Assembly: GCA_013694995.1 (NCBI GenBank)
Contig: JACDBH010000004.1
Location: 128,995 to 192,994, forward strand
Length of the DNA stretch: 64,000 nucleotides
Direction: 5' to 3'
DNA from: Candidatus Saccharimonadota bacterium
GTDB taxonomy: Bacteria; Patescibacteriota; Saccharimonadia; Saccharimonadales; JACDBH01
Under the pieces are notes generated by a model. That model was given only the letters and a program-made list of their open reading frames with translations, was not told where the DNA came from and did not search any database. A program made the position numbers and the translations under genes. Position 1 is the stretch's first letter, and each line of letters starts with the position of its first letter. Shown one piece after another: positions 17,337 to 60,101 of the stretch.

Positions 17337-17377
17337 TATAAAGTATAGACCATTGCTACTTCATATAACTTGGGTAA

Positions 17378-17408
17378 TTTATATGGTGGGCGAAAGAGGA
17401 CTTGAACC
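17378..17408 (-). repeat. 31-bp perfect direct repeat of the tRNA-Leu(CAG) 3' end plus trailer
   Basis: TTTATATGGTGGGCGAAAGAGGACTTGAACC is identical at 17378-17408 and 17534-17564. No matching 5' acceptor strand is present, so this copy is a fragment. Confidence 0.85.
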
Positions 17409-17539
17409 CGAAGAAGCCCAGTGGGCTTCTGAGTTCACGCTAGTTAAGCGTCTGTTTAGCATAGTGTTCAAAAGCTGTATATATACATTCTATTGTTTAG
17501 CGCTAAGGTACAATGTCCTATTTGTTCAGCAAGTTTATA

Positions 17540-17845: not shown

Positions 17846-19483
17846 ATGAGCAAAGTTGCACACTATTTACAGGAGCACCTTGTTGGTGAAGTTATTACCA
17901 GTCCTGATGCCCGCCGTTATTTTTCAACGGACGCTAGTATTTTTAATTTGACTCCTGCGATAGTTGTATATCCACGTAATGAAAATGATGTTCGTAAGAC
18001 TGCCAGGTTCACCTGGCAGCTAGCTGAACGGGGCAGAATAATACCAATTACGGCTCGCGGCCATGGCACTGACCAGTCCGGAGCTGCTATCGGTTCAGGC
18101 ATCATGCTGATTTTTCCAGCCTATATGAATAAGGTTTTAGAGCTCGATCCTAAAAGCGGTAGCGTGGCTGTTCAGCCGGGCTTGAATTACGGTAAACTGC
18201 AGCAAACCCTACATACACATGGCCGCTTTTTGCCACCGTTTCCGGCATCGATGGAGTATTCAACATTAGGTGGCGCCATCGGCAATAATGCCGGCGGAGA
18301 AAAGAGCGTCAAGTACGGCTCGACCAGGGAATATGTTCGTAATTTACGTGTTGTGCTTGCCAATGGCGAGGTGATCGAAACACGCCGTCTCAATAAACGC
18401 GAACTTAGCAAAAAGATGGGACTTAGCAGTTTTGAAGGCGAAGTCTATAGGGCGCTCGACACGCTTATAGAAGAGCAGCGAGACTTGGTCGTGAAATCAA
18501 AACTAGAGGTTAGTAAAAATTCGTCTGGTTACAATCTTGCCGACATTAAGAATAAAGATGGCTCATTCGACCTGACTCCTTTATTCGTTGGTTCTCAGGG
18601 CACCCTAGGTTTGGTTACGGAAGCTATAATGGAAACGGAAACCTTTAACCCTCAGTCCAGTTTAATTTCGGCGTCTTTCAATAGTATCGATGACGCCGCT
18701 AAAGCTGTGGCCGAACTCAGGAAACTGCCGGCTATTCCTAGTGCGATGGAGATGGTAGATGAGCATCTCATCACTTTTATCGAACAACATAATCCTAACC
18801 AGCTAAAAGGCTTGGTAGATAAACCGTATCACAAGTTGATATTACTGGTTGAGTTTGATGACGCCAACCAGCGTGTTCAAAAACGTAACGTCAAAAAAGC
18901 CCTTAAGATTCTAGATCGCTACAATGCCGTATGCAAAGTCGAAACTGAGACCGAACAACAAGAACAATTCTGGAAAATACGCCATGCAGCCGCTTCGGTG
19001 GCGTCATATCATGACGGCAATACCAAAGCGTTGCCAATTATTGAAGACGGAATCGTGCCAGTTGATCGGTTTGGAGAATACATCGAAAAAGTCTATGAAT
19101 TATTTGCCAAGCATCATCTGCAGGTGGCGTTGTGGGGCCATGCTGGCAATGGAAACCTGCACATGCAGCCCATGCTTGACCTTGCCCAGCTCGGCGACCG
19201 CCAGAAGATCTTTCGCCTAATGGACGAATACCACAAACTGGTAATTGAATTGGGAGGTTCATTGAGTGGCGAGCATGGTGACGGACGGCTGAGAGGCCCG
19301 TACCTAGAACAATTGTACGGCCCGCAAATCTATGAATTATTTACAAAAGTAAAAGCAATTTTTGATCCGCATGGTATTTTGAATCCAGGTGTTAAAACCG
19401 GCATTACACTGGATGATATCAAGCCTTTACTGCGGTCAGAATATACCCTGGATCACTTGTATGACCATTTACCGCGTACTTAA
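17846..19483 (+). CDS. FAD-binding oxidase (GlcD / D-lactate dehydrogenase family)
   Basis: FAD_binding_4-type N-terminus (ITARGHGTDQSGAA, GGAIGNNAGGEKS) and C-terminal GGSLSGEHGDGRLR. Confidence 0.8.
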   Translation: MSKVAHYLQEHLVGEVITSPDARRYFSTDASIFNLTPAIVVYPRNENDVRKTARFTWQLAERGRIIPITARGHGTDQSGAAIGSGIMLIFPAYMNKVLELDPKSGSVAVQPGLNYGKLQQTLHTHGRFLPPFPASMEYSTLGGAIGNNAGGEKSVKYGSTREYVRNLRVVLANGEVIETRRLNKRELSKKMGLSSFEGEVYRALDTLIEEQRDLVVKSKLEVSKNSSGYNLADIKNKDGSFDLTPLFVGSQGTLGLVTEAIMETETFNPQSSLISASFNSIDDAAKAVAELRKLPAIPSAMEMVDEHLITFIEQHNPNQLKGLVDKPYHKLILLVEFDDANQRVQKRNVKKALKILDRYNAVCKVETETEQQEQFWKIRHAAASVASYHDGNTKALPIIEDGIVPVDRFGEYIEKVYELFAKHHLQVALWGHAGNGNLHMQPMLDLAQLGDRQKIFRLMDEYHKLVIELGGSLSGEHGDGRLRGPYLEQLYGPQIYELFTKVKAIFDPHGILNPGVKTGITLDDIKPLLRSEYTLDHLYDHLPRT

Positions 19484-19681: not shown

Positions 19682-19783
19682 AAGCTTTAAGAAACTATAG
19701 CAGATAAATATGAGGCAGGCGAGACAGGACCTGTCTATGTTCCTAATTCCAATAAGTTACTACTGGTGCGCGAGAGAGGCTTG

Positions 19784-19870
19784 CTCACGTTCCGCGAGCC
19801 CAGAACTTTCATGCGTTGAACCAGTTCAACCCTGGAAGGTTCTCTTGCAAAATGCCACTGGCATTTCTCA
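19784..19870 (-). ncRNA. 87-nt conserved tRNA-fused element, copy A
   Basis: Shares sequence and compensatory hairpin changes with 22505-22591 (+) and 33747-33832 (-). Begins TGAG and ends GGAACGTGAG. No ORF. Confidence 0.5.
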
Positions 19871-19935
19871 CCTATCGGTTCAAGTTCTCCGGCACCAAAA
19901 CAACAAACCGACCTAAAGAGGCCGGATAGTTGTTT

Positions 19936-20019: not shown

Positions 20020-20298
20020 GTTTGTAAAGCCATAAAATTATAACATCGCAGGGGTATAATAAAAACATAAGAAGAGAGGGTGATGAGGGACTCGCCTCGC
20101 TGTCAAATCAAAATAGGGACTCGCATGTTGATATATAAATAAAACCTTGCAAGCAAGTATTATTTGCATCCCTGATAAATCAGGGTGCCATAGGAAAACA
20201 TGAACAGCCACTGTCTGTTCATACCCGCCGACCCTAGGCGTCGGCAGTACGAGTCCATACACCAAATTAAAAACCGGCCTTACAGCCGGTGCTTAATT

Positions 20299-21970: not shown

Positions 21971-22070
21971 TTTGAAAAAGTGAAAGGAGATGACTTGGTG
22001 AAGTTACTAATGATACCGGTCAAACTTGTTTTGCCGGTGACATAGTAACTGCACCATTACACATCGACGC
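21971..22070 (+). promoter_or_regulatory. conserved pre-tRNA leader module, copy 1 (59-nt hairpin 21997-22055)
   Basis: Same architecture as 22388-22479, 40525-40618 and 60010-60101. Helices covary, loop TCAAACTTGTTTTG, and ATTACACATCGACGC abuts the tRNA. Confidence 0.7.
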
Positions 22071-22146
22071 GGCTCTTTAGCTCAGTTGGTAGAGCAGAGG
22101 CCTGAAGAGCCTTGTGTCCCCAGTTCGAGTCTGGGAGGAGCCACCA
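22071..22146 (+). tRNA. tRNA-Phe(GAA), CCA encoded
   Basis: Acceptor GGCTCTT/AGGAGCC, anticodon arm GAGGC-CTGAAGA-GCCTT, T arm CCCAG-TTCGAGT-CTGGG. Confidence 0.85.
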
Positions 22147-22185
22147 AATAAAAACCCCACCCTCCGTGGGGTTTTTATTTGGTGG
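22141..22185 (+). terminator. rho-independent terminator whose 20-bp stem includes the tRNA-Phe CCACCA end
   Basis: CCACCAAATAAAAACCCCAC-CCTCC-GTGGGGTTTTTATTTGGTGG is a perfect inverted repeat with a T-run. Confidence 0.75.
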
Positions 22186-22317
22186 TACTCACAACTAGAA
22201 TATGCCGAAGGCAGTTCGCTAATTGCACGATTAGTGCAATTATATGCAGAACCCTAGAAATCAATCCTTTGAAAAATAGATTTCTAGGAGTGAAGCTATA
22301 TTCTGGGAGGGTATAAC

Positions 22318-22346
22318 TTGTCTGTAATGTCATTTTTAGGTATAAT
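22318..22346 (+). promoter_or_regulatory. sigma70-like promoter TTGTCT-17-TATAAT
   Basis: TTGTCT at 22318-22323, 17-nt spacer, TATAAT at 22341-22346, upstream of leader copy 2. Confidence 0.55.
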
Positions 22347-22387
22347 CCTCCCTGTTCTTATACCAAATTTGCGAGAGAATTCGCGAA

Positions 22388-22479
22388 TTTGAGAGGAGAC
22401 GGCTTGGCGATATTGCCAGGATTGCCGAGCAAACTTGTTTTGGCGGTAATACGGCAAAAACGCCATCACACGTCGACGA
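22388..22479 (+). promoter_or_regulatory. conserved pre-tRNA leader module, copy 2 (59-nt hairpin 22406-22464)
   Basis: TTTGAGAGGAGA..GGCTT, a three-segment hairpin with loop AGCAAACTTGTTTTGG, then ATCACACGTCGACGA abutting tRNA-Gly nt 1. Confidence 0.7.
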
Positions 22480-22504
22480 GCGGGTGTAGCTCAGTTGTTT
22501 AGAG
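22480..22504 (+). pseudogene. 5' fragment (nt 1-25) of tRNA-Gly(GCC), truncated by element copy B
   Basis: GCGGGTGTAGCTCAGTTGTTTAGAG is identical to 22662-22686. A decayed anticodon arm follows at 22592-22613. Confidence 0.7.
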
Positions 22505-22591
22505 TGAGGCCCGCTTGTGGCGGGCCGCAAGGCAAACTTCTGATGAAAACTTGTTTTCAATCATGAAGTTGCGGGGTCGCGGGAACGTGAC
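22505..22591 (+). ncRNA. 87-nt conserved tRNA-fused element, copy B
   Basis: TGAG-GCCCGC/GCGGGC hairpin-CGCAAGG-CTTC...GAAG helix-GTTGCGGGGTCGCGGGAACGTGAC. Homologous to copies A and C. Confidence 0.5.
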
Positions 22592-22661
22592 CTTACTTGC
22601 CAGGCCAAGGAAGCTTTCGTAAGTAACATGATGTACCTTACAATACGAACGAACCAAACAT

Positions 22662-22738
22662 GCGGGTGTAGCTCAGTTGTTTAGAGCGCTTCCTTGCCAA
22701 GGAAGAGGTCGAGAGTTAGAGTCTCTTCACCCGCACCA
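22662..22738 (+). tRNA. tRNA-Gly(GCC), CCA encoded, unusual D loop/T loop
   Basis: Acceptor GCGGGTG/CACCCGC, anticodon arm CTTCC-TTGCCAA-GGAAG, D loop AGTTGTTTA (no GG), T arm GAGAG-TTAGAGT-CTCTT. Confidence 0.85.
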
Positions 22739-24272
22739 AATGGGACTTATCTGTAATGGATAGGTCTTTTTTATTGCCCGCCAATCTGATGAGCTCGCTT
22801 ATTTCGGGGGTGTAAACATTTTTGTTGGCATCCAGCCTAAAACCAGCAGGGAAAACGATTTGTTTAAACCTCAACCTGTTTTCATGTGGTGTCAGGGGGT
22901 CTAGGAACTTTTGGCTCGTGTCACCCACAAAGCCAAAGGCAAACTTTAAGAACCGTTCGTAGTCATCCTCGGCTTTACGAGTGAGCCTGTGCAGTTGGTC
23001 TTCAATGTCTTCAGCTTCCTGTTTTCGTTTAGCTATGTTTGTAAGTATGTCGGACTTAATAGCGGCATTCTCGGGGTCTGTGGCTGCTTCAACCTGTTGG
23101 CTAATACTCTCCTGTAGGCTGGCTAGCTTGTGTCGTAGACGTACAGCCTCTTGCTGGTTCTCGCTCTCACGGCGTTTCCAGACAATATCAAGTGCTTTTG
23201 TGAGGTCAGATACACCAGCATCGGTAATAGGGTTGTTCCTAAGCTGCTTAGTAATTTTATCGTGCATTTCGCCACGGGCTAAGGCGCGCTTACAGGCACG
23301 GCACCTGTACTTTTCGTATATCTTAGGGCTTTTCCCGTTCGTTATGTCCACGCCTACAATGCGGTTGTACTGTTTACCCTCACAAACATCACAGTGAATT
23401 ATGTTGTTGAGGGGGTACTTAGGATTGCCGTTTTTGCGGGGACCAGTTTGGTTTTTCTGCTTCCCTCCAAATATACGCAACAGTTCATGGTGCTGTTCAA
23501 GGGTGATAAGCGGTTCGTGCAGCCCGTTAAGGTTATGGACTTTAACTTGTTTATCAATTGCAACACCGCCAGCGTAATAGATGTCGGTGGCTATCTTACG
23601 AAACTTGTCCATTTTATACAGGGAATGTCCTCTCATGAACTCGCTACTGTTAAGGTTTATCAAGCCCTGGGTTGGCGTGACCCGCTTGGTGACTATATCA
23701 AGCAATACCTTCCTTAGAGCCTGCCCACGCACAGGGTGAGGCTTGTGGATGCCACGTTCATCACCTCGCATGTAGCCTGGCTTAGGGCAAAACGTGTAGC
23801 GACCCTCTTGCAGGGCTTTTGTTTGACCGTTAATTGACTTACGTTGCCGTTCCTCGTTGCTACCTTCAGCAGATAGGTACTTGGTAAACTTGAGTAGCTT
23901 GGCTGCAAGGTCACCTTTGTTTAGCTCAGCGTCTGAGGCGTACCAGACTGTTACCCCTAACTGGCGAAAAGTGACTTCAAAAAACGCAGCTTCATCAATT
24001 GACCGCATAAATCTATCTGGTTCGTCTACAATAATGTACTTAATGCGCTTATCTTTTTTGCAGCGTACTATCATTTGGTTTAGGTCTTTACGGTCTACGT
24101 TCGTACCCCGCTTGCTTGAGACGCTGCCAGACCACCAGCAGTCATCAGGTATCATTACGCCTAATTCATTAGCCGCTTTTAATACAACTTCTCTCTGACG
24201 ATTAAGACTGTTATTCTCCAGTTGCTCGGTACTAGAGACTCTGCACAGTGCTATGGCGAGATGCTTAGGCAT
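22716..24272 (-). CDS. large serine recombinase (integrase type)
   Basis: N-terminal resolvase catalytic block AIALCRVSSTEQ...SL.RQ, a recombinase domain, the Cys cluster CDVC..//..CRAC (zinc ribbon), and a C-terminal coiled coil. 518 aa. Confidence 0.9.
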   Translation of the reverse strand: MPKHLAIALCRVSSTEQLENNSLNRQREVVLKAANELGVMIPDDCWWSGSVSSKRGTNVDRKDLNQMIVRCKKDKRIKYIIVDEPDRFMRSIDEAAFFEVTFRQLGVTVWYASDAELNKGDLAAKLLKFTKYLSAEGSNEERQRKSINGQTKALQEGRYTFCPKPGYMRGDERGIHKPHPVRGQALRKVLLDIVTKRVTPTQGLINLNSSEFMRGHSLYKMDKFRKIATDIYYAGGVAIDKQVKVHNLNGLHEPLITLEQHHELLRIFGGKQKNQTGPRKNGNPKYPLNNIIHCDVCEGKQYNRIVGVDITNGKSPKIYEKYRCRACKRALARGEMHDKITKQLRNNPITDAGVSDLTKALDIVWKRRESENQQEAVRLRHKLASLQESISQQVEAATDPENAAIKSDILTNIAKRKQEAEDIEDQLHRLTRKAEDDYERFLKFAFGFVGDTSQKFLDPLTPHENRLRFKQIVFPAGFRLDANKNVYTPEISELIRLAGNKKDLSITDKSHLVRVKRL

Positions 24273-24517: not shown

Positions 24518-24866
24518 TGGAGCGTTTCTGCTCCAGGAAAATAAAAAAGCCCTGGAGTCTTACCCACTTCCAGGGACGTGTCAGCTACATTTACTTTGAT
24601 GGGGCTGTTGAAGTTATTATACCACTATTTGCCAGACACAATCTAGGTAGTGATACAGAGGTGATATAATTGCAACAAGTGGTAAATCCACTCAGACCTA
24701 AACCACAGCTTTAGCAGTGGCATGGTTGATAAAACCTACGTAAATGCAATCCCGTCATTGGGTATCTATTTACGTAGGTCATAACTGGAAACGGTTGTGG
24801 CGGCTTCGGTCGCGTCTCAGTGGCGGGTTTTTATTTTGACCGCTGCTTATAACAAGGAGCATCGTA

Positions 24867-27993: not shown

Positions 27994-28167
27994 TAACCAT
28001 CCTTTAATTTCATTTAACCACAGTTTCATATAAAAGTCAATAGCTTACGCTTTAAATTACATAAACACTAACATCACAGATACGTGCGTAGCTTTTACAT
28101 TTTATAATGATTGTGTTTTGTTGGCTACTGTGATATCAATATAACTAATAAGGGCGATGTTCAGCAT

Positions 28168-31100
28168 ATGTTTATGAGAAAAAAATCAAAAAAAGTTCAA
28201 ACGCAATTTAAAGAAGAACAAATCAATCCTGGCCTAATCTTGCCTACACCCATAAATCAAAGAAAGTCCCGGTTTAGACTTTATTCACCCTCAGGAAAGG
28301 GCTGGAAATCCAAAGCTTTAATTTTCATGTTAGCTTTTGGAGTTATTGGCGGCTTCTTCTTATATAGAAGCTTTGCCGAAACCCCTTATGGCGACATACT
28401 AACTGGAGCTGACCAATTGGTGTTACGGTACGAACTGCCCTACCCGCATAATTATATTGAGAACGAATTTGAACAAGTTCCGCCACCTGCCACACTTTTA
28501 TATGGAAATGGTCTAATGCTCTGCCACGAATATGAGAAGTCTCGTGCCGACACCCAAACAAGTCCGCTAATGTTTTTAAAGGAGCGTCAGCTTGCGTCGG
28601 GTGAAATTGCGATACTCGTTGATCAAATACGAGCTCTGGGCTTTGATGATATGTTTACCAGGACGCTACCTGATACTATTCCTCCGGCGGTAGACGAAAC
28701 ACCTAGCATTAGCCTGTTTACCACTAGCGGCGAAAGGGAAGTTGTTCTTTATCCTACTGAAAAGTTAGACAAATTTGATGCAATAGCTGCGCTCCTAAGC
28801 AGTGAGTGCAAAAAGGCAAAGACTGATTTTGATCCTGATGAAGTTATCTTGGAAAGTATCAAACTGCCGGATATGGCTGAAAGTACAGTGGCTACCTTGC
28901 CAAATTTGTCAGTATCAGTTGCTGAAAAGGACAACGATATCCAATCCAAAGTCCTTAGTGGCGATGAAGCTAAAAATATTAAAGGCCTAATAGCTAAAGG
29001 GAATAAAATATATAAAGCACCAGACGGCAAAAAAATTAAAGTAAGGGTAATACCGAAAGTACCCGATTACCAAATTTCGAAACGTTTCAGTAAATCTAGC
29101 GGTGGAAACGTGGCCAGTGCAGCTAATATATACAAAGTCCGTTTCGTATATATATATGCTGCTGATCAAGCTCCTCCAACCTCAGATCAACTTAGTGGCT
29201 TTGTTGAGTTGATGAACTCATTGCCGGGCTATTACAGTAACAATGTGAATAAGCCTTTTACATCCCAGGGGCTAACAGTGATGCAAGCAACCAAAAACGT
29301 GGCAGATTATCATGTATGTCCAGATAACAAATGCGTAGATACAAATACAGGTGAGTACATGGGCTCACTGGCTACATATAAAAACTTAGAACTAGATAGT
29401 AATATAAAAAAAGCTGGTATAAGTACGGTGGTAGCATATAACTGGAACTACGGGAGCGAAGTATGTAGGGGCTGGGGAGGCCCTACTCATCCTGAATCTG
29501 AATTTTTTAATTACGTTGGTGTCGAAAATTATGGTGTAGCAGCCTTTGCTGCCGCAAAGTGTATGGGATCTACTTCTCTATATCCTCCCCCGGGTAACCC
29601 AAGTCCAAATCTGAGACACAAGGTGGGCGCGCATGAAGTCGGCCATACTTTTGGGTTAGGTCATGACACAGAACTAACAATGATGCATAGGGGCGGTGTC
29701 ACTATGACTACTTTTGGTTATGGTATTCCACTGAATCCCGTCCAGGCTACCCTACTTCGTGATTTAAGCCTATTCTTTCGTGAAGAAGCTGGGGCGGTGT
29801 ATGAACCTGGACCAGTTACATCAGGTTCAACCTTTGTCTCCATAAACCCAGCACGCCTACTTGAAACACGTCCAAACCTTTCAACTGTCGATGGGAATTT
29901 TAATGGCATAAACAGCCTAGTAGCCGGCTCAACTACAAAATTACAGGTTGGTGGCCGGGCCGGAATGGCCACCAATGCTAGAGCAGCTGCGCTCAATGTT
30001 ACAGCCATTAACCCAATAGCAGCGGGTTATATGGTAGTTTTTCCATGTGATACTGGGCAACCAAAAACTTCAAACGTTAATTATAATCCTGGCATTACAG
30101 TTTCAAATTTTGTTATTTCAAGGTTAGACGGTAACGGACAGGTCTGCATATATACTAATAATGCCATAGATTTGGTAGTAGATATAAATGGGGTGTTTCC
30201 ATCTGGTTCTACTACATCATATACCAACATAAGCCCTGTCCGCATACTAGAAACGCGGGGAGGCCTATTAACTGAAGATGGGCAGTTTAATGGCATTAAC
30301 CGTTTGCCGGCAGGTTCAGTTACCCAGTTAACGGTTAATGGCCGTGTCGGTATACCCTCTAATGCTTCTGCTGTATCCTTAAATGCTACAGTTATAGATC
30401 CAGCTGCCGATGGGTTTATGGTTATTTACCCTTGCAATACCTCTCCGCCTTCTACTTCAAGTATTAACTATATGAAAAGTAGTAATATATCGAATGCTGT
30501 TATATCAAAAGTAGGCAATGGCAGTGTCTGTATCTATACCAATAACGCAATTGATCTGGTAGTTGATATTAATGGTGCGTTTAATGACTACACGTCATTT
30601 AAAAGTGTTCCGCCTAAGCGCTTACTGGAAACTAGGCCTGGGCTTATTACCTATGATGGTATTTCGCAAGGTATTAACAGGCTTGGAGCTGGCTCAATAA
30701 CCGAATTCCAGGTTGCCGGAAGGGCTGAAGTACCCAATGATGCCCTAGCAACGGCATTGAATGTTACAGTTATTAATGCCCAGTACGACGGTTTCATGAC
30801 AGTATATCCTTGTGGTATCCCTTTACCGAAGACTTCCAATGTCAACTTTAACGCCAATACCACCGTTTCTATAGCTGCATTTTCGAAAATAGGGGTAGGT
30901 AGCAGTGCTGGCAAAGTCTGCCTTTATACAAATGTTGCTACGGACGCTGTAGTTGATGTAAATGGCGCGTTTGTGATTTCAGATGGGTCGCAATCCGCTC
31001 TAACCGCGGTTGATCCTGTCGGGGTTTCTCCCGCCCCACCTACTACCGTAGTAGCCTGCCCGTCAGGCTACATAGGCACTTATCCAAACTGTGTCATACC

Positions 31101-33708
31101 AGTTCCTCCAGACACCATTGCAAGAAAGATGTTTACCTGGGTTAGTAACAGTGCAACTGCTCCAAACATTCCGGATTATCCTTACTGTGCTCGCATGGAT
31201 GCTTCTGCCACGGACCCGCATACTTGGGCTGACAACTGGCTATGCAGCCACTTCGATTATGGCTTAAGGCTTTATTTAGCTACTGCACCACTTAATCATG
31301 CCTCCCTGTATCCAACCAGTTCGATTTTCATGGCTGAGCCGGCGCATAAAGATGCAGGATGGGGCGATTCCTCAATGGGGACTACAAGGACTGCTTACTT
31401 CCTGCAATCCGACAGAAATACCCCAAGCGATTTTGTATCAAAATTTACCTGGAGCTATGTAGGTTCTACTGAGATAGCGGCAGGCTTACCTGACGCGCGC
31501 TCCTGTACTGCATGGAGTGAACCATCCGAACCAGCCAGCTCGATGTGGAGCGATAACTACCTATGTGGGCCTTGGTGGTTCCAAACTATACCCCCAACGC
31601 CACCAGTAGTCTCGATAACGGCGCCAGCTAGTAATTCTACCGTGAGCAACATTGTCACCATCAGTGCCAATGCAACTGATGCTAAAGGGATCTCAGTCGT
31701 CCAGTTCAAGTTGGATGGCAATAACCTCGGCGTCGAAGATGCGACGGCACCTTATTCGATAAACTGGGACAGTAAAACGGTGAACAGTGGCAACCATACC
31801 CTCACGGCGGTAGCGCGTAATGTCAGCGGACTTAGCACAACTTCAGCACCCGTTACAGTGAATGTCCAATTACCCCCACCACCACAAAGCACAGCACAGG
31901 GCACAATAACTAGTGCAGACTGCGCAATCATAAGGGGAACTGCCTACGATGCAGACTGGCCAGCAGGTGGAATACGAATTGATATACGAATCGATTCTTC
32001 TTACGCGTCCAATCCCCGTCCACCAGATGGAACCGTTTACACCGACTCAGCCGGTAATTGGTCTTGGTCAATCCCTAATACATCGGCTTATAAAACCAGT
32101 CGAGCTCGTTCTATATATTTTGACATATTGGGCAAAAACTCCTCAGGTGTTGGTGATGCTTGGGTAGTTGGCATTAACTCAGGTAGTCCAACTTACGGCC
32201 CTTGCCAAGTTGCAATGTGTAGTTCTATTCAAGTCAGCATGGATAATGGGGTTACATACGGAAGTAACATTGGTTATAACGGTAGCGCCAATGTCACTGG
32301 TGGTAAGGCATTCAAAGTGAAAATGGCGATGAATAACCTAGCTCCTGTGGTTGGCGGTTCTACATGGAATACAGGATCTGCCAGTCAACAGGTACATGTC
32401 GGAACAGACGGAACAGATACTAGGAATGACTTTAAGGCAATAACTGGTTTAGATTATAGGACATCCGAAAATTCACCGGCTACCGTATACCCTGGCCAAG
32501 TAGGGTACTTCGTATGGGGAATTACTGCTCCGAATGCCAACACAACGCAGTATAAAAACTACACTATGCGTTTCCAGGCTGTGCAGGAATGGGTTGAATG
32601 GTTTAATACGGCTGGTTCTTCGAATACAGGAAACTGCCAGTTTAATATAAACGTCACAGCTCCGATTATAAGCAAATGCTCGGGCGTAACAATTTATAGT
32701 GACTCAAACTTCATAGGCGGTAGTTCAATTTTAAGTGCAGGATACAGTACAACGCGGATTCCTCTTGGTAGTGATACTATCAGCTCAGCACGCATACCAA
32801 AGGGATGTAAATTACGGCTGTTCCTGAATAATGTATATAGCGGAGCAATGCATGATTTAACAAGTGATTGGCCAGGCAGTGTATCTGACCCATGGAATGA
32901 CAAAGCCTCAGCACTGCAAGTCACAGAATCAGATACGATTACGGCAACAACGCCAATAACATGTCCCTCAAATAGCGTGACGCTATTCAAAGATTCCGGT
33001 TACTTAGGGTCATCGAAAATATTAAGTAATGGTAAGTATGATGTGAGGCAGCTTTCAGGTATTGGGGATAATAGGCTAAGCTCAGTTAAAGTACCTCTTG
33101 GCTGTAAGGTTATCCTATATCAAAATAGCGGTTTTGGCGGTGCAACCAAAGTACTAAACGGCGACTGGACAAGCACTGCTGATGATCCATGGAACGATAT
33201 TACTTCTAGTATTGAAGTCAAAAACCGTGCTACGGCTGTGGCTTCGACTGAGATGTTACAGAACCCTGGGTTTGAGCAGGGCAATGTAGTTTGGACAACA
33301 TCTGTTCCGAGTGGTGTAGTGTTCAACTACAATGTGTTATCTACAGCCGGACAAGCAAAAGAAGGAACTAAGTATATGGAAGCTAACTCTACACCATATG
33401 GAGCATCGCTATATCAGGTCGTCACAGCAAATCAAGAGCCAGGTTCTACATATAGATGGTCGGCTTGGGTAAGGTCGCCATCTTGTACTCCCGTAAATGG
33501 ACATGTTACTCTTTGGAGTGTGTGGGCAACAGTCACTAATTCCTACACCGGCTTCACAGCTGATTGTACTTGGCGCCAAATAACGACCACCTTCACTGCA
33601 ACTAATACCGGGGACACACAGTTCCTGCCATATATAACGTTACTTACGGGAGGCGTAAATCTGGATATTGATTCAGCTAGCTTGGTTAAAATTAATTACG
33701 TAGAGTAA
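28168..33708 (+). CDS. giant membrane-anchored surface protein: metzincin-motif protease region, 3x ~115-aa repeats, Ig-like, beta/gamma-crystallin-like x2, CBM-like C-terminus
   Basis: Start MFMRKKSKK matches the paralog. TM segment ALIFMLAFGVIGGFFLY. HEVGHTFGLGHD at 29632-29667 followed by MMH. Repeats run LETRP...LNVT...YPC...TSN.N...D.VVD.NGAF. C-terminal NPGFEQG..W block. Confidence 0.75.
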   Translation: MFMRKKSKKVQTQFKEEQINPGLILPTPINQRKSRFRLYSPSGKGWKSKALIFMLAFGVIGGFFLYRSFAETPYGDILTGADQLVLRYELPYPHNYIENEFEQVPPPATLLYGNGLMLCHEYEKSRADTQTSPLMFLKERQLASGEIAILVDQIRALGFDDMFTRTLPDTIPPAVDETPSISLFTTSGEREVVLYPTEKLDKFDAIAALLSSECKKAKTDFDPDEVILESIKLPDMAESTVATLPNLSVSVAEKDNDIQSKVLSGDEAKNIKGLIAKGNKIYKAPDGKKIKVRVIPKVPDYQISKRFSKSSGGNVASAANIYKVRFVYIYAADQAPPTSDQLSGFVELMNSLPGYYSNNVNKPFTSQGLTVMQATKNVADYHVCPDNKCVDTNTGEYMGSLATYKNLELDSNIKKAGISTVVAYNWNYGSEVCRGWGGPTHPESEFFNYVGVENYGVAAFAAAKCMGSTSLYPPPGNPSPNLRHKVGAHEVGHTFGLGHDTELTMMHRGGVTMTTFGYGIPLNPVQATLLRDLSLFFREEAGAVYEPGPVTSGSTFVSINPARLLETRPNLSTVDGNFNGINSLVAGSTTKLQVGGRAGMATNARAAALNVTAINPIAAGYMVVFPCDTGQPKTSNVNYNPGITVSNFVISRLDGNGQVCIYTNNAIDLVVDINGVFPSGSTTSYTNISPVRILETRGGLLTEDGQFNGINRLPAGSVTQLTVNGRVGIPSNASAVSLNATVIDPAADGFMVIYPCNTSPPSTSSINYMKSSNISNAVISKVGNGSVCIYTNNAIDLVVDINGAFNDYTSFKSVPPKRLLETRPGLITYDGISQGINRLGAGSITEFQVAGRAEVPNDALATALNVTVINAQYDGFMTVYPCGIPLPKTSNVNFNANTTVSIAAFSKIGVGSSAGKVCLYTNVATDAVVDVNGAFVISDGSQSALTAVDPVGVSPAPPTTVVACPSGYIGTYPNCVIPVPPDTIARKMFTWVSNSATAPNIPDYPYCARMDASATDPHTWADNWLCSHFDYGLRLYLATAPLNHASLYPTSSIFMAEPAHKDAGWGDSSMGTTRTAYFLQSDRNTPSDFVSKFTWSYVGSTEIAAGLPDARSCTAWSEPSEPASSMWSDNYLCGPWWFQTIPPTPPVVSITAPASNSTVSNIVTISANATDAKGISVVQFKLDGNNLGVEDATAPYSINWDSKTVNSGNHTLTAVARNVSGLSTTSAPVTVNVQLPPPPQSTAQGTITSADCAIIRGTAYDADWPAGGIRIDIRIDSSYASNPRPPDGTVYTDSAGNWSWSIPNTSAYKTSRARSIYFDILGKNSSGVGDAWVVGINSGSPTYGPCQVAMCSSIQVSMDNGVTYGSNIGYNGSANVTGGKAFKVKMAMNNLAPVVGGSTWNTGSASQQVHVGTDGTDTRNDFKAITGLDYRTSENSPATVYPGQVGYFVWGITAPNANTTQYKNYTMRFQAVQEWVEWFNTAGSSNTGNCQFNINVTAPIISKCSGVTIYSDSNFIGGSSILSAGYSTTRIPLGSDTISSARIPKGCKLRLFLNNVYSGAMHDLTSDWPGSVSDPWNDKASALQVTESDTITATTPITCPSNSVTLFKDSGYLGSSKILSNGKYDVRQLSGIGDNRLSSVKVPLGCKVILYQNSGFGGATKVLNGDWTSTADDPWNDITSSIEVKNRATAVASTEMLQNPGFEQGNVVWTTSVPSGVVFNYNVLSTAGQAKEGTKYMEANSTPYGASLYQVVTANQEPGSTYRWSAWVRSPSCTPVNGHVTLWSVWATVTNSYTGFTADCTWRQITTTFTATNTGDTQFLPYITLLTGGVNLDIDSASLVKINYVE

Positions 33709-33724
33709 GACAAGTTTTAATATA

Positions 33725-33886
33725 TGGTGCGGGTTGAAGAGACTCTCCCACGTTCCGCGGGCCCGAAACTTCATCTTTACAGGCTAGTTTGTAAGAGAAG
33801 ATTTCCTTGCGAATTGCCACCGGCAATTCTCACTCTCGACCTCGTCCTTGGCAAGGATGCGCTCTAAACAACTGAGCTAAACCCGC
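33725..33886 (-). tRNA. tRNA-Gly(GCC)-like gene interrupted in the T loop by the 86-nt element (intron-like, or a pseudogene)
   Basis: The 54 nt at 33886-33833 match tRNA-Gly through the T-stem 5' strand. The 22 nt at 33746-33725 are AGAGTCTCTTCAACCCGCACCA. TATAAT at 33908-33903. Confidence 0.5.
33747..33832 (-). ncRNA. 86-nt conserved tRNA-fused element, copy C
   Basis: TGAG-AATTGCC/GGCAATT hairpin-CGCAAGG-CTTC...GAAG-GTTTCGGGCCCGCGGAACGTGGG. Homologous to copies A and B. Confidence 0.5.
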
Positions 33887-34667: not shown

Positions 34668-37600
34668 ATGTTCATGAGGAAAAGATCGAAGAAAACTAAA
34701 ATGCCAGTAGATATGATGCAAACAGACGCACCTATAGAAGCGCCAAAAAGTGGACGCCGCCAGAAACATTTAAGCTTATATCCGGTATCAGGGAAAGGCT
34801 GGAAGCAAAAAGCAATCATATTTATGGTCGCTTTTGGAGTTATTGGCGGCTTCTTTATATATAAGAATTACGCATTAAACCAGTATGGTGATATCCCAAC
34901 TGGTGCAGATGAGCTTGTCTTAAACTATGAGCTGCCCGAAGTTTATGAGGTTTTAGAAAATGACTTTAATCAGGGTTCTGCGCCAGCCATGATGTTATAT
35001 GGCAATGGACTTATGCTTTGCGGCAACGAAACATCGGGAAAAAATCCCCAAATTAGCCCGCTTATGTCTATTAAACAGCGTCAGCTATCGCCTCTGGAAG
35101 TCACGACTTTATTTGAAAAAGTACGAGCATTGGGATTTGATAGTTTGCTTACGCGTACTTTGCCGGATTCGCCAGCGCCGCCTTTTGGTGTTACGCCTAG
35201 TCTTAGCTTGTTTACCAGCGAAGGTGAGCGGCGGTTAGTCCTAGCATTTAATGAAAAACCGGCTCAGTTTACTGCTATTACTAATTATTTGGACGATGAA
35301 TGTAAGAAAGCTAAAGAAGAATTCTATCCAGACGATGTAGTACTTGAGAGCATAAAAATTACCGAATCGGCCGAGGCTGGTTTGGAGGCACTTCCTGACA
35401 TACCTGTGCCAAATAGAGACGGTCTTGGTTCTACCAGGCTGCTGGGTGATGAGGCTATAAGGGTTAAAAGCTTAATTTCTAAAGGAAACAAGTTATATAA
35501 AACGTCAGATGGTAAAAAGATCAAAGTACGTCTATTACCAACAATTCCCGAGTACAAGATACCAAAGCTAGCTACTGCTGCCAACAGTAGCAGTAATGTT
35601 GCACACGCGGATAATTTCCGAAAAGTGCGTTTCCTGTATGTAGTTGCAGCCGATGAAGCTGTACCATCTAATGCCCAAACACAGATTAGCGAATTGGCTT
35701 CATCACTGCCGGGATATTACGAAACACAAGTTGGCAAGACATTTACAGTAGAAGGGGCGAGCGTTGTCAAGGGAAGTAAAACTGCTGCACAATACCGTGC
35801 GTGCCCCTATGCAGGTGTTGATTATGCTAAGTGTTTGGTCGATGGTATATTTGAAGATTCACTTGCCTCATATCTACACTTGCAACAAGAATTTAGAGCA
35901 GACAACTTCAGTACGATTATGATGTTAAGCTGGACAACGAGTAGATGTTTAGGAATGGGTGGCCCAACTGATCCTTTGAAAGTGGATAATGCAAATCTTG
36001 ATACGTATGGCATGGGTAGTTTCTCGGCACCTTCATGTCCTTGGGCAGGAACCAAAGAATTGCTCGGTGCTCACGAAGGTGGCCACAGTTTTGGCCTAGA
36101 ACATACCCAGGACCAAACAATTATGTCGAATGCTTACACTCCACCCAAAGGTTATGTATGGCCGCTTAAATCAAGCCAGGCTGCACTGCTAAGTAACTCC
36201 AGTCCATGGTTTAATGGTCCCACTGCGGCTGCTCCCGCTCCTGCAGCAGTCTCATCAGGCTCCACATTTATCTCCATAACTCCTGCCCGCATCCTAGAAA
36301 CACGTCCAAATCTAAGCACTGCTGATAATCAGTACAATAATACTGGCCGTCTCAAGGGAGGTATAGTTAGAGAATTACCAGTAGCTGGGCGTGTTGGTAT
36401 ACCGATCAACGCTCTAGCGGCAGCATTAAATGTTACCGTAGTTAACCCTTCAGGTGATGGCTTCGTAACGGTCTTTCCGTGTGGCACTGGCACACCAGGG
36501 ACATCAAATGTTAATTTCCGCACAGGAAACGTAATTTCTAATATGGTTATATCAAAACTAGGCGGTGGCCAGGTCTGTTTATATAGCAACGTTGATACCG
36601 ATCTGGTGGTTGACGTCAACGGAGCCTTCCCATCTGTTTCTACCGCATTTTATACTAATGTTACCCCATCACGCCTACTTGAGACGCGGCCAGGTAATTC
36701 TACTACCGATGGGCAGTTTAATAACATAGGACGTAGAGCTGGAGGAACAGTCACTGCTGTGCAGGTTAGCGGTCGTTTCGGTATCCCTTCCAATGCTTCC
36801 GCAGTATCTCTAAACGTTACGGTCATTGAGCCTTCAGCAACCGGCTACATGGTTGTATATCCGTGCGGTATACCACCTCCAACTACTTCAAGTGTTAACT
36901 ATACAGGTGGAGGAATTATCTCAAATGCAGTTATTTCGAAACTAGGCAGTGGCCAAGTCTGTATCTATACCAATAACGACACCGATCTAGTGATTGACGT
37001 TAATGGTGCCTTTAATGACGTAACATCGTTTAAGAGTGTCCCGCCAGTCCGCCTACTTGATACCCGCCCTGGTTATAGTACGGTTGACGGTGTTAGTGCA
37101 GGTATAGGGGCACGCACAGGGGGTTCAACTTATGAGCTCACAGTTGCAGGCAGGGGAGGAGTGCCTGCCGATGCAGTGTCGGTTGCGCTCAACGTTACAG
37201 TGATTAACCCTGTGGGAGATGGTTTCTTGACTGTATTCCCATGTGGCATAGGTTTGCCAAATACTTCAAATGTTAACTATAAAGCAGGCACTATTCTCTC
37301 CAATGCCGTGCTGTCTAAACTAGGCAGTAAAAAAGTCTGCATCTATACCAACAATAGTACCGATATAGTTGTAGACGTTAGTGGCGCTTTCACACTTCTG
37401 GATACGCAGCAAAGTGCAACGGCCGTAACCCCGTCGGTTACCTCGCCAACTTTAATCTCTTCCTGCCCAACCGGCTACACCGGAACCTATCCGAACTGTG
37501 TTCTTTCACGATGCCCAACCGGCTACACCGGCACCTACCCGAACTGTGTGCCTCCACCATGCCCAACCGGCTACACCGGCACCTACCCGAACTGTGTGCC

Positions 37601-39056
37601 TCCGGCCTGCCCAACCGGCTACACCGGAACCTATCCGAACTGTGTGCCTCCGGCTACCTTAGCCCCATCCATATGCAGAGGTTTGACTGTCTACAGTGAT
37701 GCTAATTACTTGGGTGCCTCCCAGTCTCTCACTTATACCCAGTACGACTACCCGTTAGCAATAGGCAACGATGCCATCAGCTCAGCCCGTGTTCCAGCTG
37801 GCTGTAAGCTAACCCTTTACCAGAACGGTGCCTACGGCGGAGCTACCCAGGAGCTAACAAGCAATTGGGCTGGCAGCGCTGGCGACCCATGGAATGACAA
37901 GACTTCCAGTGTCAAAGTCGCCACCAATGGTATAGTGTCTACTACTCCGCTAACCTGTAGTAGTGTCGGTATAAGACTATACACCGAAGCTGGTTATACT
38001 GGTACTTCGCAAGCATTCTTTAAAGGCAATTATGACTACGCTCAGCTTGGTACCGTAGGCAATGACAAAGTAAGCTCAGTATATGTTTCGGCTGGCTGTA
38101 AGGTCATCCTTTACCAGCACGGTGCCTTCAGTGGTGCCACTAAAGAACTAACAAGTGGCTGGTATGGGAGTACTACCGACCCATGGAACGACATCACATC
38201 TGGTATTAAGGTAGTTGACCGTGCCACGACCAATTACGGCTCGAATAATGCCTACCGCATGCTAGGTCTTAGATGGAGTTATACTGGCTACATACCTGGC
38301 GGCTACTGTGTCGAAGTCGTTGAACCAAGCGACCCAGTCTGGATGACTTACCGTGATAACTTCCTCTGTAGGACATCAGGTGATTTAAAATGGAGTTACG
38401 CTGGCCCAATTGCCGGTATGTACTGTACGTTAGTCAATGAACCTGCTGAACCGTTAAATTACTACTGGTACGATAACTATATCTGTACAAATAACTCCCA
38501 AGGCACCAGGTTCAGCTCAGCTGGCCCAATTGCCGGTATGGCTTGCACCCTCATGAACGAACCGGGAGACCCTCATTCCTGGAATGATAACTATATCTGC
38601 GAACCGGCACGGGTAACGGCTTCTAGCGTTTATACCCCATATGGCTATTATGTCGCTGCTAATGCGACTGACGATGGGGGGGTAACTAACGAATGGGCCT
38701 CCTATGGCCAAGGAGCTGGCGCATGGGTGCAGATTGGCTGGCCGGGCGTAGTTAACGTCAGTAAAGTAAGCATCAGAGATCGGGTCAACCCACTCGATAA
38801 CATCCAGAGCTTTACACTTACCTTTAGCGACGGTTCAGCCGTGGCTTACGGCATACCGCTACCGAACGACGGGGCTCCACTAGAAATTCAATTCCCAGGC
38901 AAAAACATTATCTGGATGCGTATGACTGTAAACACTTCAATTGGTCCGAATATTGGTGTCGCTGACATTAAGACTTTCCCTTATATTGGATATACAGAGA
39001 CTACAACAAGTACAACAACTACAACAACTACGACACCGCCGCCTACTGCAAATTAA
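34668..39056 (+). CDS. giant membrane-anchored surface protein, paralog of 28168-33708, with discoidin-like C-terminal domain and poly-Thr tail
   Basis: MFMRKRSKK start. TM segment AIIFMVAFGVIGGFFIY. HEGGHSFGLEH at 36072-36104. 3x LETRP...NGAF repeats, 4x CPTGYTGTYPNCV, 2x crystallin-like domains, 3x W/C modules. Confidence 0.75.
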   Translation: MFMRKRSKKTKMPVDMMQTDAPIEAPKSGRRQKHLSLYPVSGKGWKQKAIIFMVAFGVIGGFFIYKNYALNQYGDIPTGADELVLNYELPEVYEVLENDFNQGSAPAMMLYGNGLMLCGNETSGKNPQISPLMSIKQRQLSPLEVTTLFEKVRALGFDSLLTRTLPDSPAPPFGVTPSLSLFTSEGERRLVLAFNEKPAQFTAITNYLDDECKKAKEEFYPDDVVLESIKITESAEAGLEALPDIPVPNRDGLGSTRLLGDEAIRVKSLISKGNKLYKTSDGKKIKVRLLPTIPEYKIPKLATAANSSSNVAHADNFRKVRFLYVVAADEAVPSNAQTQISELASSLPGYYETQVGKTFTVEGASVVKGSKTAAQYRACPYAGVDYAKCLVDGIFEDSLASYLHLQQEFRADNFSTIMMLSWTTSRCLGMGGPTDPLKVDNANLDTYGMGSFSAPSCPWAGTKELLGAHEGGHSFGLEHTQDQTIMSNAYTPPKGYVWPLKSSQAALLSNSSPWFNGPTAAAPAPAAVSSGSTFISITPARILETRPNLSTADNQYNNTGRLKGGIVRELPVAGRVGIPINALAAALNVTVVNPSGDGFVTVFPCGTGTPGTSNVNFRTGNVISNMVISKLGGGQVCLYSNVDTDLVVDVNGAFPSVSTAFYTNVTPSRLLETRPGNSTTDGQFNNIGRRAGGTVTAVQVSGRFGIPSNASAVSLNVTVIEPSATGYMVVYPCGIPPPTTSSVNYTGGGIISNAVISKLGSGQVCIYTNNDTDLVIDVNGAFNDVTSFKSVPPVRLLDTRPGYSTVDGVSAGIGARTGGSTYELTVAGRGGVPADAVSVALNVTVINPVGDGFLTVFPCGIGLPNTSNVNYKAGTILSNAVLSKLGSKKVCIYTNNSTDIVVDVSGAFTLLDTQQSATAVTPSVTSPTLISSCPTGYTGTYPNCVLSRCPTGYTGTYPNCVPPPCPTGYTGTYPNCVPPACPTGYTGTYPNCVPPATLAPSICRGLTVYSDANYLGASQSLTYTQYDYPLAIGNDAISSARVPAGCKLTLYQNGAYGGATQELTSNWAGSAGDPWNDKTSSVKVATNGIVSTTPLTCSSVGIRLYTEAGYTGTSQAFFKGNYDYAQLGTVGNDKVSSVYVSAGCKVILYQHGAFSGATKELTSGWYGSTTDPWNDITSGIKVVDRATTNYGSNNAYRMLGLRWSYTGYIPGGYCVEVVEPSDPVWMTYRDNFLCRTSGDLKWSYAGPIAGMYCTLVNEPAEPLNYYWYDNYICTNNSQGTRFSSAGPIAGMACTLMNEPGDPHSWNDNYICEPARVTASSVYTPYGYYVAANATDDGGVTNEWASYGQGAGAWVQIGWPGVVNVSKVSIRDRVNPLDNIQSFTLTFSDGSAVAYGIPLPNDGAPLEIQFPGKNIIWMRMTVNTSIGPNIGVADIKTFPYIGYTETTTSTTTTTTTTPPPTAN
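37464..37655 (+). repeat. 4 x 48-bp in-frame tandem repeat encoding CPTGYTGTYPNCV(L/P)(S/P)(R/P/A)
   Basis: TGCCCAACCGGCTACACCGG(A/C)ACCTA(T/C)CCGAACTGTGT... repeated head-to-tail four times. Units 1 and 4 share synonymous variants, as do units 2 and 3. Confidence 0.9.
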
Positions 39057-40469: not shown

Positions 40470-40524
40470 AACTGGGTCCTCGGCTAATTATGCAAACCAG
40501 GCAACTTGTTTGCTGTTTAGCGTA

Positions 40525-40618
40525 TTTAAGAAGAGAGGGCTTGGTGAGGTTGCAAATAATGCCACACAAACTTGTTTTGATGGCAGTATGGCAACATCAC
40601 CATTACACCTTAACGACA
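40525..40618 (+). promoter_or_regulatory. conserved pre-tRNA leader module, copy 3 (59-nt hairpin 40543-40601)
   Basis: TTTAAGAAGAGAGGGCTT, hairpin GGTG..TTGC..TGCCA-loop CACAAACTTGTTTTGA-TGGCA..GCAA..CACC, then ATTACACCTTAACGACA. Confidence 0.7.
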
Positions 40619-40685
40619 GGGCGCCTTGGCCGAGAAGTTAGGCAGCGGTCTGCAAAACCGCGTAGACGGGAGCGTTACCCGTAGG
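40619..40685 (+). pseudogene. orphan 5' two-thirds of a type II tRNA with anticodon loop CTGCAAA (GCA); no T arm or 3' acceptor strand
   Basis: GGGCGCC-TT-GGCCGAGAAGTTAGGC-A-GCGGT-CTGCAAA-ACCGC plus a long variable arm ACGGG/CCCGT. Downstream sequence cannot form a T arm or pair with GGGCGCC. Confidence 0.55.
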
Positions 40686-59867: not shown

Positions 59868-60009
59868 ATACTCATTCTAACTGCTATAGTTATCATAAAA
59901 AAACGAAATACCTAACATTCGTACATTAATAAACCTGTTAAAATATGCCCCCATCTGTTAAAATTGTCCCGAAAGTCATTATTTACAAATTCGCGAGAGG
60001 AATCGCAAA

Positions 60010-60101
60010 TTTGAGTGGGGAAGGCTTGCTGAGGTTGCTACTTTTGCCGAGTAAATTTATTTTGTCGGCAAATATGTAACCGCAGCATCACACTTCGACG
60101 A
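60010..60101 (+). promoter_or_regulatory. conserved pre-tRNA leader module, copy 4 (59-nt hairpin 60028-60086)
   Basis: TTTGAGTGGGGAAGGCTT, hairpin GCTG..GTTGC..TTGCCGA-loop GTAAATTTATTTTG-TCGGCAA..GTAAC..CAGC, then ATCACACTTCGACGA. Confidence 0.7.

Follow-up and report, generated by a model that had tools for sequence, protein, structure and literature searches.

The 64,000-nucleotide stretch of DNA analysed here (positions 128,995 to 192,994 of contig JACDBH010000004.1, assembly GCA_013694995.1; hereafter the window) derives from a Candidatus Saccharimonadota bacterium and carries, at 22318–22738 on the + strand, an intact tRNA-Gly(GCC) gene preceded by a partial copy of the same gene, into which an 88-nt non-coding element is set. 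Promoter, terminator, leader, tRNA and element features were read from the window sequence, and tRNAs were identified by ARAGORN and Rfam. A sigma-70-like promoter, TTGTCT-17-TATAAT (22318–22346), matching 10 of 12 consensus positions in a promoter scan, is followed by a leader module (22362–22479) consisting of a hairpin (22364–22391) and a conserved structured leader of about 95 nt that ends in CGACGA. The displaced 5' fragment, hereafter the stump (22480–22504), corresponds to nt 1–25 of tRNA-Gly, that is, the 5' strand of the acceptor stem and the D arm, and is identical to 22662–22686 at 25 of 25 bases. Copy B of the element (22505–22592) has, like the other two copies in the window, a fold of three hairpins (P1, a long P2 and P3) and is recovered by a covariance model at 22504–22592 with 93.3 bits (E = 2.8e-19). 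It is followed by an altered anticodon arm (22593–22613; tRNA-Gly nt 26–43), an AT-rich spacer of 48 nt (22614–22661) with a −10-like TACAAT at 22639–22644, the intact tRNA-Gly(GCC) (22662–22738; ARAGORN, and 70 bits with the Rfam tRNA model) and the intrinsic terminator of this transcription unit (22742–22775, terminator scan), all on the + strand. The order and coordinates of these features, read over 22100–23000, are as given in a first-pass annotation of the window, except that copy B, correctly placed there, ends one base further on, at 22592 instead of 22591, because C22592 pairs in the last hairpin. The same annotation called the gene the only intact tRNA-Gly, which holds within the window; a second tRNA-Gly(GCC) at 33733–33886 on the − strand is interrupted by another copy of the element, copy C.

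The altered arm, CTTACTTGCCAGGCCAAGGAAG (22592–22613), is the anticodon arm of tRNA-Gly with a 5-nt loop insertion, which extends the helix of the arm, and one stem substitution. A terminator scan found no terminator between the stump and the intact tRNA-Gly, the only terminator-like sites being at 22159–22172, after tRNA-Phe, and at 22742–22768, after tRNA-Gly. With 0.14 occurrences expected, the window contains four copies of the 11-mer AAACTTGTTTT: the leaders have three and copy B has one, at the apex of its long hairpin; in the leaders the 11-mer lies in the loop, in agreement with the resemblance between the two that had been pointed out earlier. The tRNA leader (about 95–120 nt, GAGAGGAG...CAAACTTGTTTTG...CACNTCGACGA) has four copies in the window, before tRNA-Phe, the Gly stump, tRNA-Cys and tRNA-Gln, and those other than the one at the stump lie on the + strand at ~21971–22070, 40517–40619 and 60002–60101. 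The D loop of the intact tRNA-Gly is without the usual GG (AGTTGTTTA), and its T loop reads TTAGAGT, not TTCRANY, as in relatives. These unusual loops recall the non-proteinogenic tRNA-Gly species that serve staphylococcal cell-wall synthesis.

The element is a real structured family, as shown by covariation in an alignment of 49 non-redundant copies, with column shuffles and slides of the pairing partners by 1–3 columns as controls. Standard pairs make up 97.5% of the pair cells, compared with 77.2% in the shuffles, compensatory double changes occupy 303 cells compared with 78, and pairing falls to 24–40% when the partners are slid. Compensatory changes are carried by 22 of the 31 pairs. One G·U pair in P3 is invariant, indicating that the tRNA-sense strand is the folded strand. 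The ends of the element are precise, beginning with TGAG and ending with GTGACC; there are no terminal inverted repeats at these ends and no short duplication flanking the element itself, and P1 and P3 are unlike in sequence and loop. The only preference in the 5' flank is a purine-rich ..RRG, the preceding base being nearly always G. Rfam 15, searched over 22300–22800 up to E = 10, gave no match of the element to any family, introns and ribozymes included; the sole above-threshold match in this region is the tRNA, and the next best, at 17 bits, falls short of its 35-bit threshold. Searches of the literature turned up no account of the element.

A 19-base pattern, AAGTTNNGGGNNCGCGG(N)AACGTG, scanned against species-representative genome contigs, matches at least 120 stretches, nearly all labelled Candidatus Saccharibacteria, Saccharimonadales or Patescibacteria. 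The covariance model recovers 121 copies in 100 of the pattern-matched loci, with up to five per locus, and leaves a few chance pattern matches unconfirmed. Canonical elements on contigs binned elsewhere (L007, labelled Rhodoglobus; L032, labelled Burkholderiaceae; L018, labelled Parcubacteria) could be epibiont DNA contaminating these bins or could reflect real transfer. Two pattern scans of 2.9 million IMG/VR viral contigs found neither end pattern, and at 18 loci with no tRNA nearby the Rfam models revealed no element embedded in transfer-messenger RNA (tmRNA), RNase P RNA or rRNA.

Copies of the element are closely tied to tRNA genes. Among 113 copies, the nearest tRNA within 200 nt lies on the same strand as the element in 86 and on the opposite strand in 1. 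The insertion points are all unpaired regions of the cloverleaf, and the layout of a partial tRNA copy, the element and an intact tRNA recurs at no fewer than 12 tRNA isotypes and at four tRNA positions. A regenerated intact tRNA and a displaced tRNA fragment form a direct repeat at 73 of the 114 family copies. In the 5' type, to which copy B belongs (at least 30 copies), tRNA nt 1 to N precede the element, after which the tRNA sequence runs on for a short distance and a spacer of 36–80 nt carrying −10-like boxes leads to the intact tRNA. Four locations of N are seen: the D loop (~17), the position following the D stem (24/25), the anticodon loop (37/38) and the T loop (53–55). The 3' type (at least 43 copies) is composed of the intact tRNA, its terminator, a spacer, the element and an exact copy of the tRNA 3' end, often with an inverted copy of the 5' strand of the T stem and the T loop, followed by a direct copy of the T-stem 5' strand, before the element. 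The piece after the element copies the tRNA from C56 onward, and many such pieces match through CCA, at 21 of 21 bases. Copy A is of this type: the module after tRNA-Leu(GAG), at 19764–19935 on the − strand, contains a terminator, the inverted T-arm piece CTTGAACC, copy A (19783–19871; covariance model, 84.3 bits) and the displaced tRNA 3' end (19764–19782). Most modules have less than 260 bp between the repeats, and among the matches listed only L024, L037 and L009 have large inserts between the repeat copies. Many direct repeats end at CCA, and several run 14–42 nt past the tRNA end or continue with mismatches. Repeats ending at mature tRNA ends were considered as a mark of an RNA origin and discarded as not diagnostic, several extending beyond CCA.

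A metagenome scan with the neighbouring flavin adenine dinucleotide (FAD)-linked oxidase (17846–19483) gave 80 syntenic loci (62–77% protein identity, 798 kb), which share the gene order Leu(CAG), oxidase, Leu(GAG), Val, Phe, Gly. The covariance model finds only 20 elements in these 798 kb, and a canonical element lies within 250 nt of only 14 of the 145 tRNAs. The module is polymorphic at tRNA-Gly itself. In the empty sites of L167, L178 and L196 the promoter directly abuts a single intact tRNA-Gly; at the start of the tRNA, L178 reads TATAATCCTTCTCTGTTAT followed by GCGAGTG, the counterpart in the window being TATAATCCTCCCTGTTCTTAT. The site is filled in the window and in L157; in the latter, the stump comes 9 nt after tRNA-Phe and is followed by the element and the altered arm, and a further 47 nt lead to the intact tRNA-Gly. 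L165 has the leader and then an intact tRNA-Gly, with no element module.

In the window, the TATAAT box and the following CCTCCCTGTTCTTAT, which sits upstream of the leader and the stump, share homology with the promoter lying immediately before tRNA-Gly at the empty sites of L178 and L196. Judged by this homology, the promoter at 22318–22346 is the ancestral promoter of tRNA-Gly. Since the ancestral promoter context is kept by the stump and not by the intact copy, the first 25 nt of the intact gene and the spacer would be new DNA. We infer that the stump is the displaced original 5' end of tRNA-Gly and that the inserted DNA comprises the element, the altered nt 26–43, the spacer and a new copy of nt 1–25. 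The leader is missing from L167, L178 and L196, and it is found elsewhere before tRNA-Gly in L165, tRNA-Gln in L048 and tRNA-Leu in L138, while in L006 it is placed between the element module and the tRNA. By this presence and absence among relatives it looks like a second polymorphic module of the insertion type, and the leader at 22362–22479 seems to have entered, in a second and independent event, between the promoter and position +1 of the tRNA.

The order of promoter, stump (24–25 nt), element, altered arm, spacer and intact tRNA-Gly is also found in L006, L008, L016, L022, L096 and L157 and, with the CCC isoacceptor, in L041; overall, the module is kept in at least seven species. The altered arm is CTTGCCAGGCCAAGG in all GCC cases (the window and the first six of these loci). 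In the CCC case the loop is TTCCTGGGCGAA, and the helix-extending UUG/CAA is changed to a compensatory UUC/GAA. The arm had earlier been described as a degenerate version of the tRNA-Gly anticodon arm; its relation to that arm stands, but random degeneration does not, since the same altered sequence is present in other species. Constraint on the stump is weaker, with divergence of the first 12 nt in L008 and two acceptor differences from the intact gene in L096. The TTGCCA of the altered arm, which may act as a −35 box, is separated from TACAAT by exactly 17 nt in L006 and L008, from TAGAAT by 18 nt in L016 and from TACATA by 17 nt in L096. In the window, the spacing from TTGCCA to TACAAT is 36 nt, the best −35 sequence at 17 nt is only TTCGTA, and a promoter scan of the spacer at 22614–22661 passed no consensus promoter. 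Because the spacing varies by species, an internal promoter in the spacer is plausible in some species and doubtful in the window.

Copies of the element that are 100% identical lie at tRNA-Pro in L085 and at tRNA-Leu in L076, in different assemblies and with unrelated flanks, and copies at different tRNAs or positions within the JAPUFB and JBAQIV assemblies are 94–98% identical. The presence of identical elements at different tRNAs in different genomes suggests that the element is mobile. Modules also accumulate around one gene. In L009 (1150–3100), an array of up to five modules, serial and nested, surrounds an intact tRNA-Leu(UAG): a partial copy with two elements lies upstream and three successive modules lie downstream, the proximal displaced 3' fragment being perfect and the next one decayed, and a LOG-family gene (PF03641) is located between two modules. 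In L024 (2800–4020), a 256-aa orphan open reading frame (ORF) lies between the regenerated tRNA-Gly and the element, and the repeat runs about 20 nt past CCA. This ORF was considered as the mobilisation enzyme and rejected, as it has no Pfam domain and only five homologues; it is thus regarded as cargo. On the reverse strand of L077 (JAPUFB010000005.1), the displaced 5' fragment is from tRNA-Leu(UAA) and the adjoining regenerated gene is tRNA-Leu(UAG), so that the module may have changed the isoacceptor identity of the locus.

These observations make it probable, though well short of certain, that 22480–22661 is a recurrent insertion module of the tRNA genes of Candidatus Saccharibacteria, with the 88-nt non-coding element as its core. 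About 182 nt would have been inserted after nt 25 of a single-copy tRNA-Gly(GCC), the insert being made up of the element, the altered nt 26–43, the 48-nt spacer and a replacement for nt 1–25. The old 5' end would thereby have remained on the ancestral promoter together with the element, and the gene would have been rebuilt from a new 5' part and the old 3' part. The element would act in cis or be itself mobile; it would be recognised in folded, single-stranded form, whether as RNA or as non-template DNA, and acted on by some enzyme encoded elsewhere. Only configurations with one intact tRNA would persist, and simple insertions would be tolerated in redundant genes; the T-loop insertion of copy C would be such a case, because the window holds another tRNA-Gly(GCC). 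The duplication would be either imported with the insert or made during insertion or repair, and site-specific recombination, fold-back or template-switch synthesis and transformation-mediated spread are candidate origins of the inverted T-arm pieces. Saccharibacteria have tiny genomes with single-copy tRNA genes and are naturally competent, recombination-dependent epibionts. The tRNA would be expressed by read-through from 22318–22346 with an RNase P cut at 22662, from a weak internal promoter, or both. With no terminator between the promoter-proximal copy and the intact copy, release of the intact tRNA-Gly by RNase P from a read-through transcript of the 22318–22346 promoter is plausible.

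Several observations weigh against an insertion module of this kind. The window copies A, B and C are only 66–71% identical in pairwise comparisons and so show no trace of recent activity in this genome. The loci analysed yielded no mobilising enzyme, and a tblastn search with the serine recombinase of the window, described below, found no homologue at the other pattern-matched loci. The inverted T-arm copy beside many modules is enriched yet without explanation: an inverted T-arm octamer with at most one mismatch adjoins 21 of 46 3'-type modules against 2 of 46 controls and 7 of 11 5'-type modules against 1 of 11 controls, and the piece follows the T-loop sequence of the neighbouring tRNA. 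Repeats that pass the tRNA end could be local duplications rather than imported sequence. Instead of bordering a simple identity block, the element lies within a loop of the partial tRNA copy, and we know of no classical attachment (att) sites with an element in such a position. A mutual-information scan of the element against its flanks found no Watson-Crick covariation and no pairing of the guide type. Finally, strong structural conservation fits a functional RNA equally well.

A more far-reaching version of the insertion-module reading, offered only as a tentative possibility, would have the element define a novel class of mobile, non-coding elements whose targets are single-stranded loops in tRNA genes or transcripts. 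Recognised as a folded strand, the element would form a system of micro-islands without an integrase. A partial duplication equipped with its own promoter or terminator would accompany insertion and regenerate the essential target, and the process might be driven by undescribed RNA or single-stranded DNA chemistry. The palindrome-associated elements derived from IS200/IS605, and those of the REP/RAYT system, are likewise small, non-coding, strand-specific hairpins. Like the element, they have no terminal inverted repeats and no short target duplication at their own ends and insert 3' of a short preferred sequence, and they use the lagging-strand template, which is the sense strand of co-oriented genes. 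The element differs from these in that its end hairpins P1 and P3 are dissimilar, where IS200/IS605-type elements have like subterminal hairpins at the two ends, its 5' preference is ..RRG with no fixed tetra- or pentanucleotide, its targets are tRNA loops and its insertion is accompanied by partial duplication of the target; nor was a Y1 transposase identified at the loci analysed. Assignment to the miniature inverted-repeat transposable elements was rejected, because these are defined by terminal inverted repeats and a fixed-length target-site duplication, which the element does not have.

Among the readings that dispense with an insertion module, the one that survives best, although unlikely, is that tRNA precursors possess, in the element and its flanks, an RNA domain that acts in cis, benefits the host, for example through folding, processing or stability, and is kept by selection. 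The strong covariation and the invariant G·U pair, the nearly constant sense orientation, the AAACTTGTTTT apex common to the element and the tRNA leader and the conservation of the altered anticodon arm with a compensatory change would all be expected of such a domain, co-transcription from the upstream promoter is possible with no intervening terminator, and base pairing is conceivable between the inverted T-arm pieces and the T arm of the adjoining tRNA. However, in the syntenic sample, which is unbiased, only 14 of 145 tRNAs carry the element, and the same tRNA-Gly locus has empty sites. Furthermore, modules of the 3' type sit downstream of strong terminators, modules stack serially with decay of the distal copies, and identical elements are found at unrelated tRNAs in different genomes.

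An improbable alternative is that the partial repeats are att remnants of integrase islands or prophages, for example of an island with a serine recombinase, the element being a conserved island end. A large serine recombinase of 518 aa with a resolvase domain (PF00239) is indeed encoded at 22716–24272 on the − strand and overlaps the 3' end of tRNA-Gly, and two modules enclose cargo genes. A regenerated tRNA together with a displaced fragment is moreover the hallmark of islands in tRNA genes, which restore the gene they split and leave the displaced fragment to mark the island end (PMC4383910). Nevertheless, the recombinase lies on the opposite side of the tRNA from the stump and has no homologue near the other pattern-matched loci, most modules span less than 260 bp between repeats, and the element is absent from the viral contigs. 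In addition, the element interrupts the very loop that would be the crossover region, and double-stranded arms bound by a protein should show no hairpin covariation. The copy B insert contains no integrase, its 182 nt being non-coding, and the larger inserts encode the orphan protein and the LOG-family protein. The recombinase and a LOOT RNA (RF03000, 75 bits; 24695–24813, + strand), 400 nt beyond it, may be a separate integrated element beside the same tRNA-Gly.

The insertion module nevertheless shares several features with Islander-type islands in tRNA and tmRNA genes, for which sublocation rules were reportedly set out by Williams in 2002: the tRNA gene is split, a replacement is carried on the insert, and the regenerated gene and the displaced fragment delimit that insert; insertion points include the T loop and the anticodon loop; and there is stacking, as in L009, and occasional cargo, as in L024 and L009. 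It differs from them in that the inserts are typically 150–250 bp with no integrase linked across loci, 5' fragments are displaced at a rate expected only for inserts near the 5' end, and further insertion points lie in the D loop and at position 25/26. An 88-nt structured element in the loop of the displaced copy, accompanied by an inverted T-arm piece and not found in viral contigs, is a further difference.

The first-pass annotation proposed instead a tandem pair of tRNA-Gly genes, with a hit between D arm and anticodon stem in the copy nearer the promoter and subsequent decay of that copy. It is true that nt 1–25 and a segment like the anticodon arm are present in the right order upstream of the intact copy, and a truncated copy (nt 1–43) with the element after nt 25 is confirmed. 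The ancestral tandem state finds no support in the syntenic relatives, in which the empty sites are single-gene and two intact copies occur in none. Decay of a hit copy does not fit either: the identical truncation and 5-nt loop insertion are present in at least seven species, with the compensatory change in the CCC case, and so are not the product of random decay. The identical layout at many tRNAs with regular spacing and the retention of the ancestral promoter with the stump also argue against a tandem pair, which we regard as very improbable. A tRNA-Gly stump without the element, which would have spoken against the first-pass history in another way, was found in none of the relatives examined.

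Copy C (33746–33833, − strand; covariance model, 90.3 bits) interrupts the T loop of the second tRNA-Gly(GCC), which was recognised in the sequence and missed by ARAGORN and Rfam; no intact tRNA copy adjoins it. When copy C is excised in silico, ARAGORN reports a tRNA-Gly. This tRNA has an A·C mismatch in the anticodon stem, and its acceptor stem, GCGGGTT/AACCCGC, is that of the tRNA-Gly allele of L008 and L022; the gene is probably a pseudogene. Excision was tried with 28 boundary variants per copy, followed by ARAGORN on the joined sequence, and gave a junction-spanning tRNA in only 4 of 114 copies, copy C among them, indicating that the element is generally no intron. A tRNA intron, spliced out of the transcript by itself or with the help of proteins, suggested by the cloverleaf obtained from copy C in an otherwise complete tRNA-Gly, by the restriction of insertion points to tRNA loops and by the richness of Patescibacteria in group I introns of tRNA genes (PMC13011429), is the least credible of the readings considered, given that 110 of 114 copies yield no tRNA once the element is removed, that copy B is carried by a fragment without nt 44–76, that an 88-nt sequence with no Rfam match to a group I or II intron or a ribozyme is unlike known self-splicing introns, that no guide pairing with the flanks was found and that even the copy C tRNA has its anticodon-stem mismatch.

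The mobile tRNA introns of Thermoproteales and the split and permuted tRNAs of archaea resemble the insertion modules in that related short inserts occur in many tRNA genes of one lineage and at several non-canonical positions, including the D arm, the anticodon loop and the T loop (PMC4033280, PMC4390854). The archaeal inserts are true introns with a bulge-helix-bulge motif and are removed by the splicing endonuclease (PMC4033280, PMC4390854), whereas the element is found in a bacterial host and its carrier is usually a truncated tRNA copy, from which excision would give no tRNA. The group I introns found in patescibacterial tRNA genes (PMC13011429) occur in the same phylum and likewise interrupt tRNA genes that standard annotation misses. 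These introns are at least ~200 nt long, lie in the anticodon loop, are self-splicing and match Rfam families; the element is 88 nt long and has no Rfam match.

These folded inserts of about 88 bases are previously undescribed and widespread, and they nearly always leave a working tRNA copy alongside; what lies at tRNA-Gly is probably an insertion module, not a decayed pair. Since about one in ten tRNA genes in the unbiased syntenic sample carries a module, tRNA inventories and pseudogene calls in the phylum are affected, and standard tRNA finders miss both displaced fragments and interrupted genes such as that of copy C. The covariance model of the element would annotate hundreds of loci with a motif, structured RNA or single-stranded DNA, that is absent from Rfam. 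The principle of tRNA islands would work for inserts of 150–250 bp that have no integrase linked to them, on both sides of the gene and at four positions in the tRNA. The modules also raise the question of how such inserts move and how they rewire the promoters, the terminators and, as in L077, the isoacceptor identity of tRNA genes.

Variant elements accompany the canonical ones. Downstream of tRNA-Val in the window, 20077–20260 on the − strand is occupied by a variant element of greater length and, after it, a repeat of the tRNA 3' end without ACCA; within these coordinates a weak element variant lies at 20119–20224 on the − strand. In relatives, the region downstream of tRNA-Val holds a second family of structured elements, canonical elements, stacked modules and empty sites, and partial tRNA repeats without a canonical element mostly hold variant elements. 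Downstream of tRNA-Leu(CAG), about 125 nt in which there is only a P1-like hairpin (GAAGCCCACTGGGCTTC) lead to 38 nt that repeat the 3' part of the tRNA (17376–17413, − strand). The interrupted tRNA-Gly of copy C is flanked by two very large paralogous ORFs on the + strand, 28111–33708 (1865 aa) and 34668–39056 (1462 aa), which share several repeat families, including the 48-nt tandem repeats at 37464–37651.

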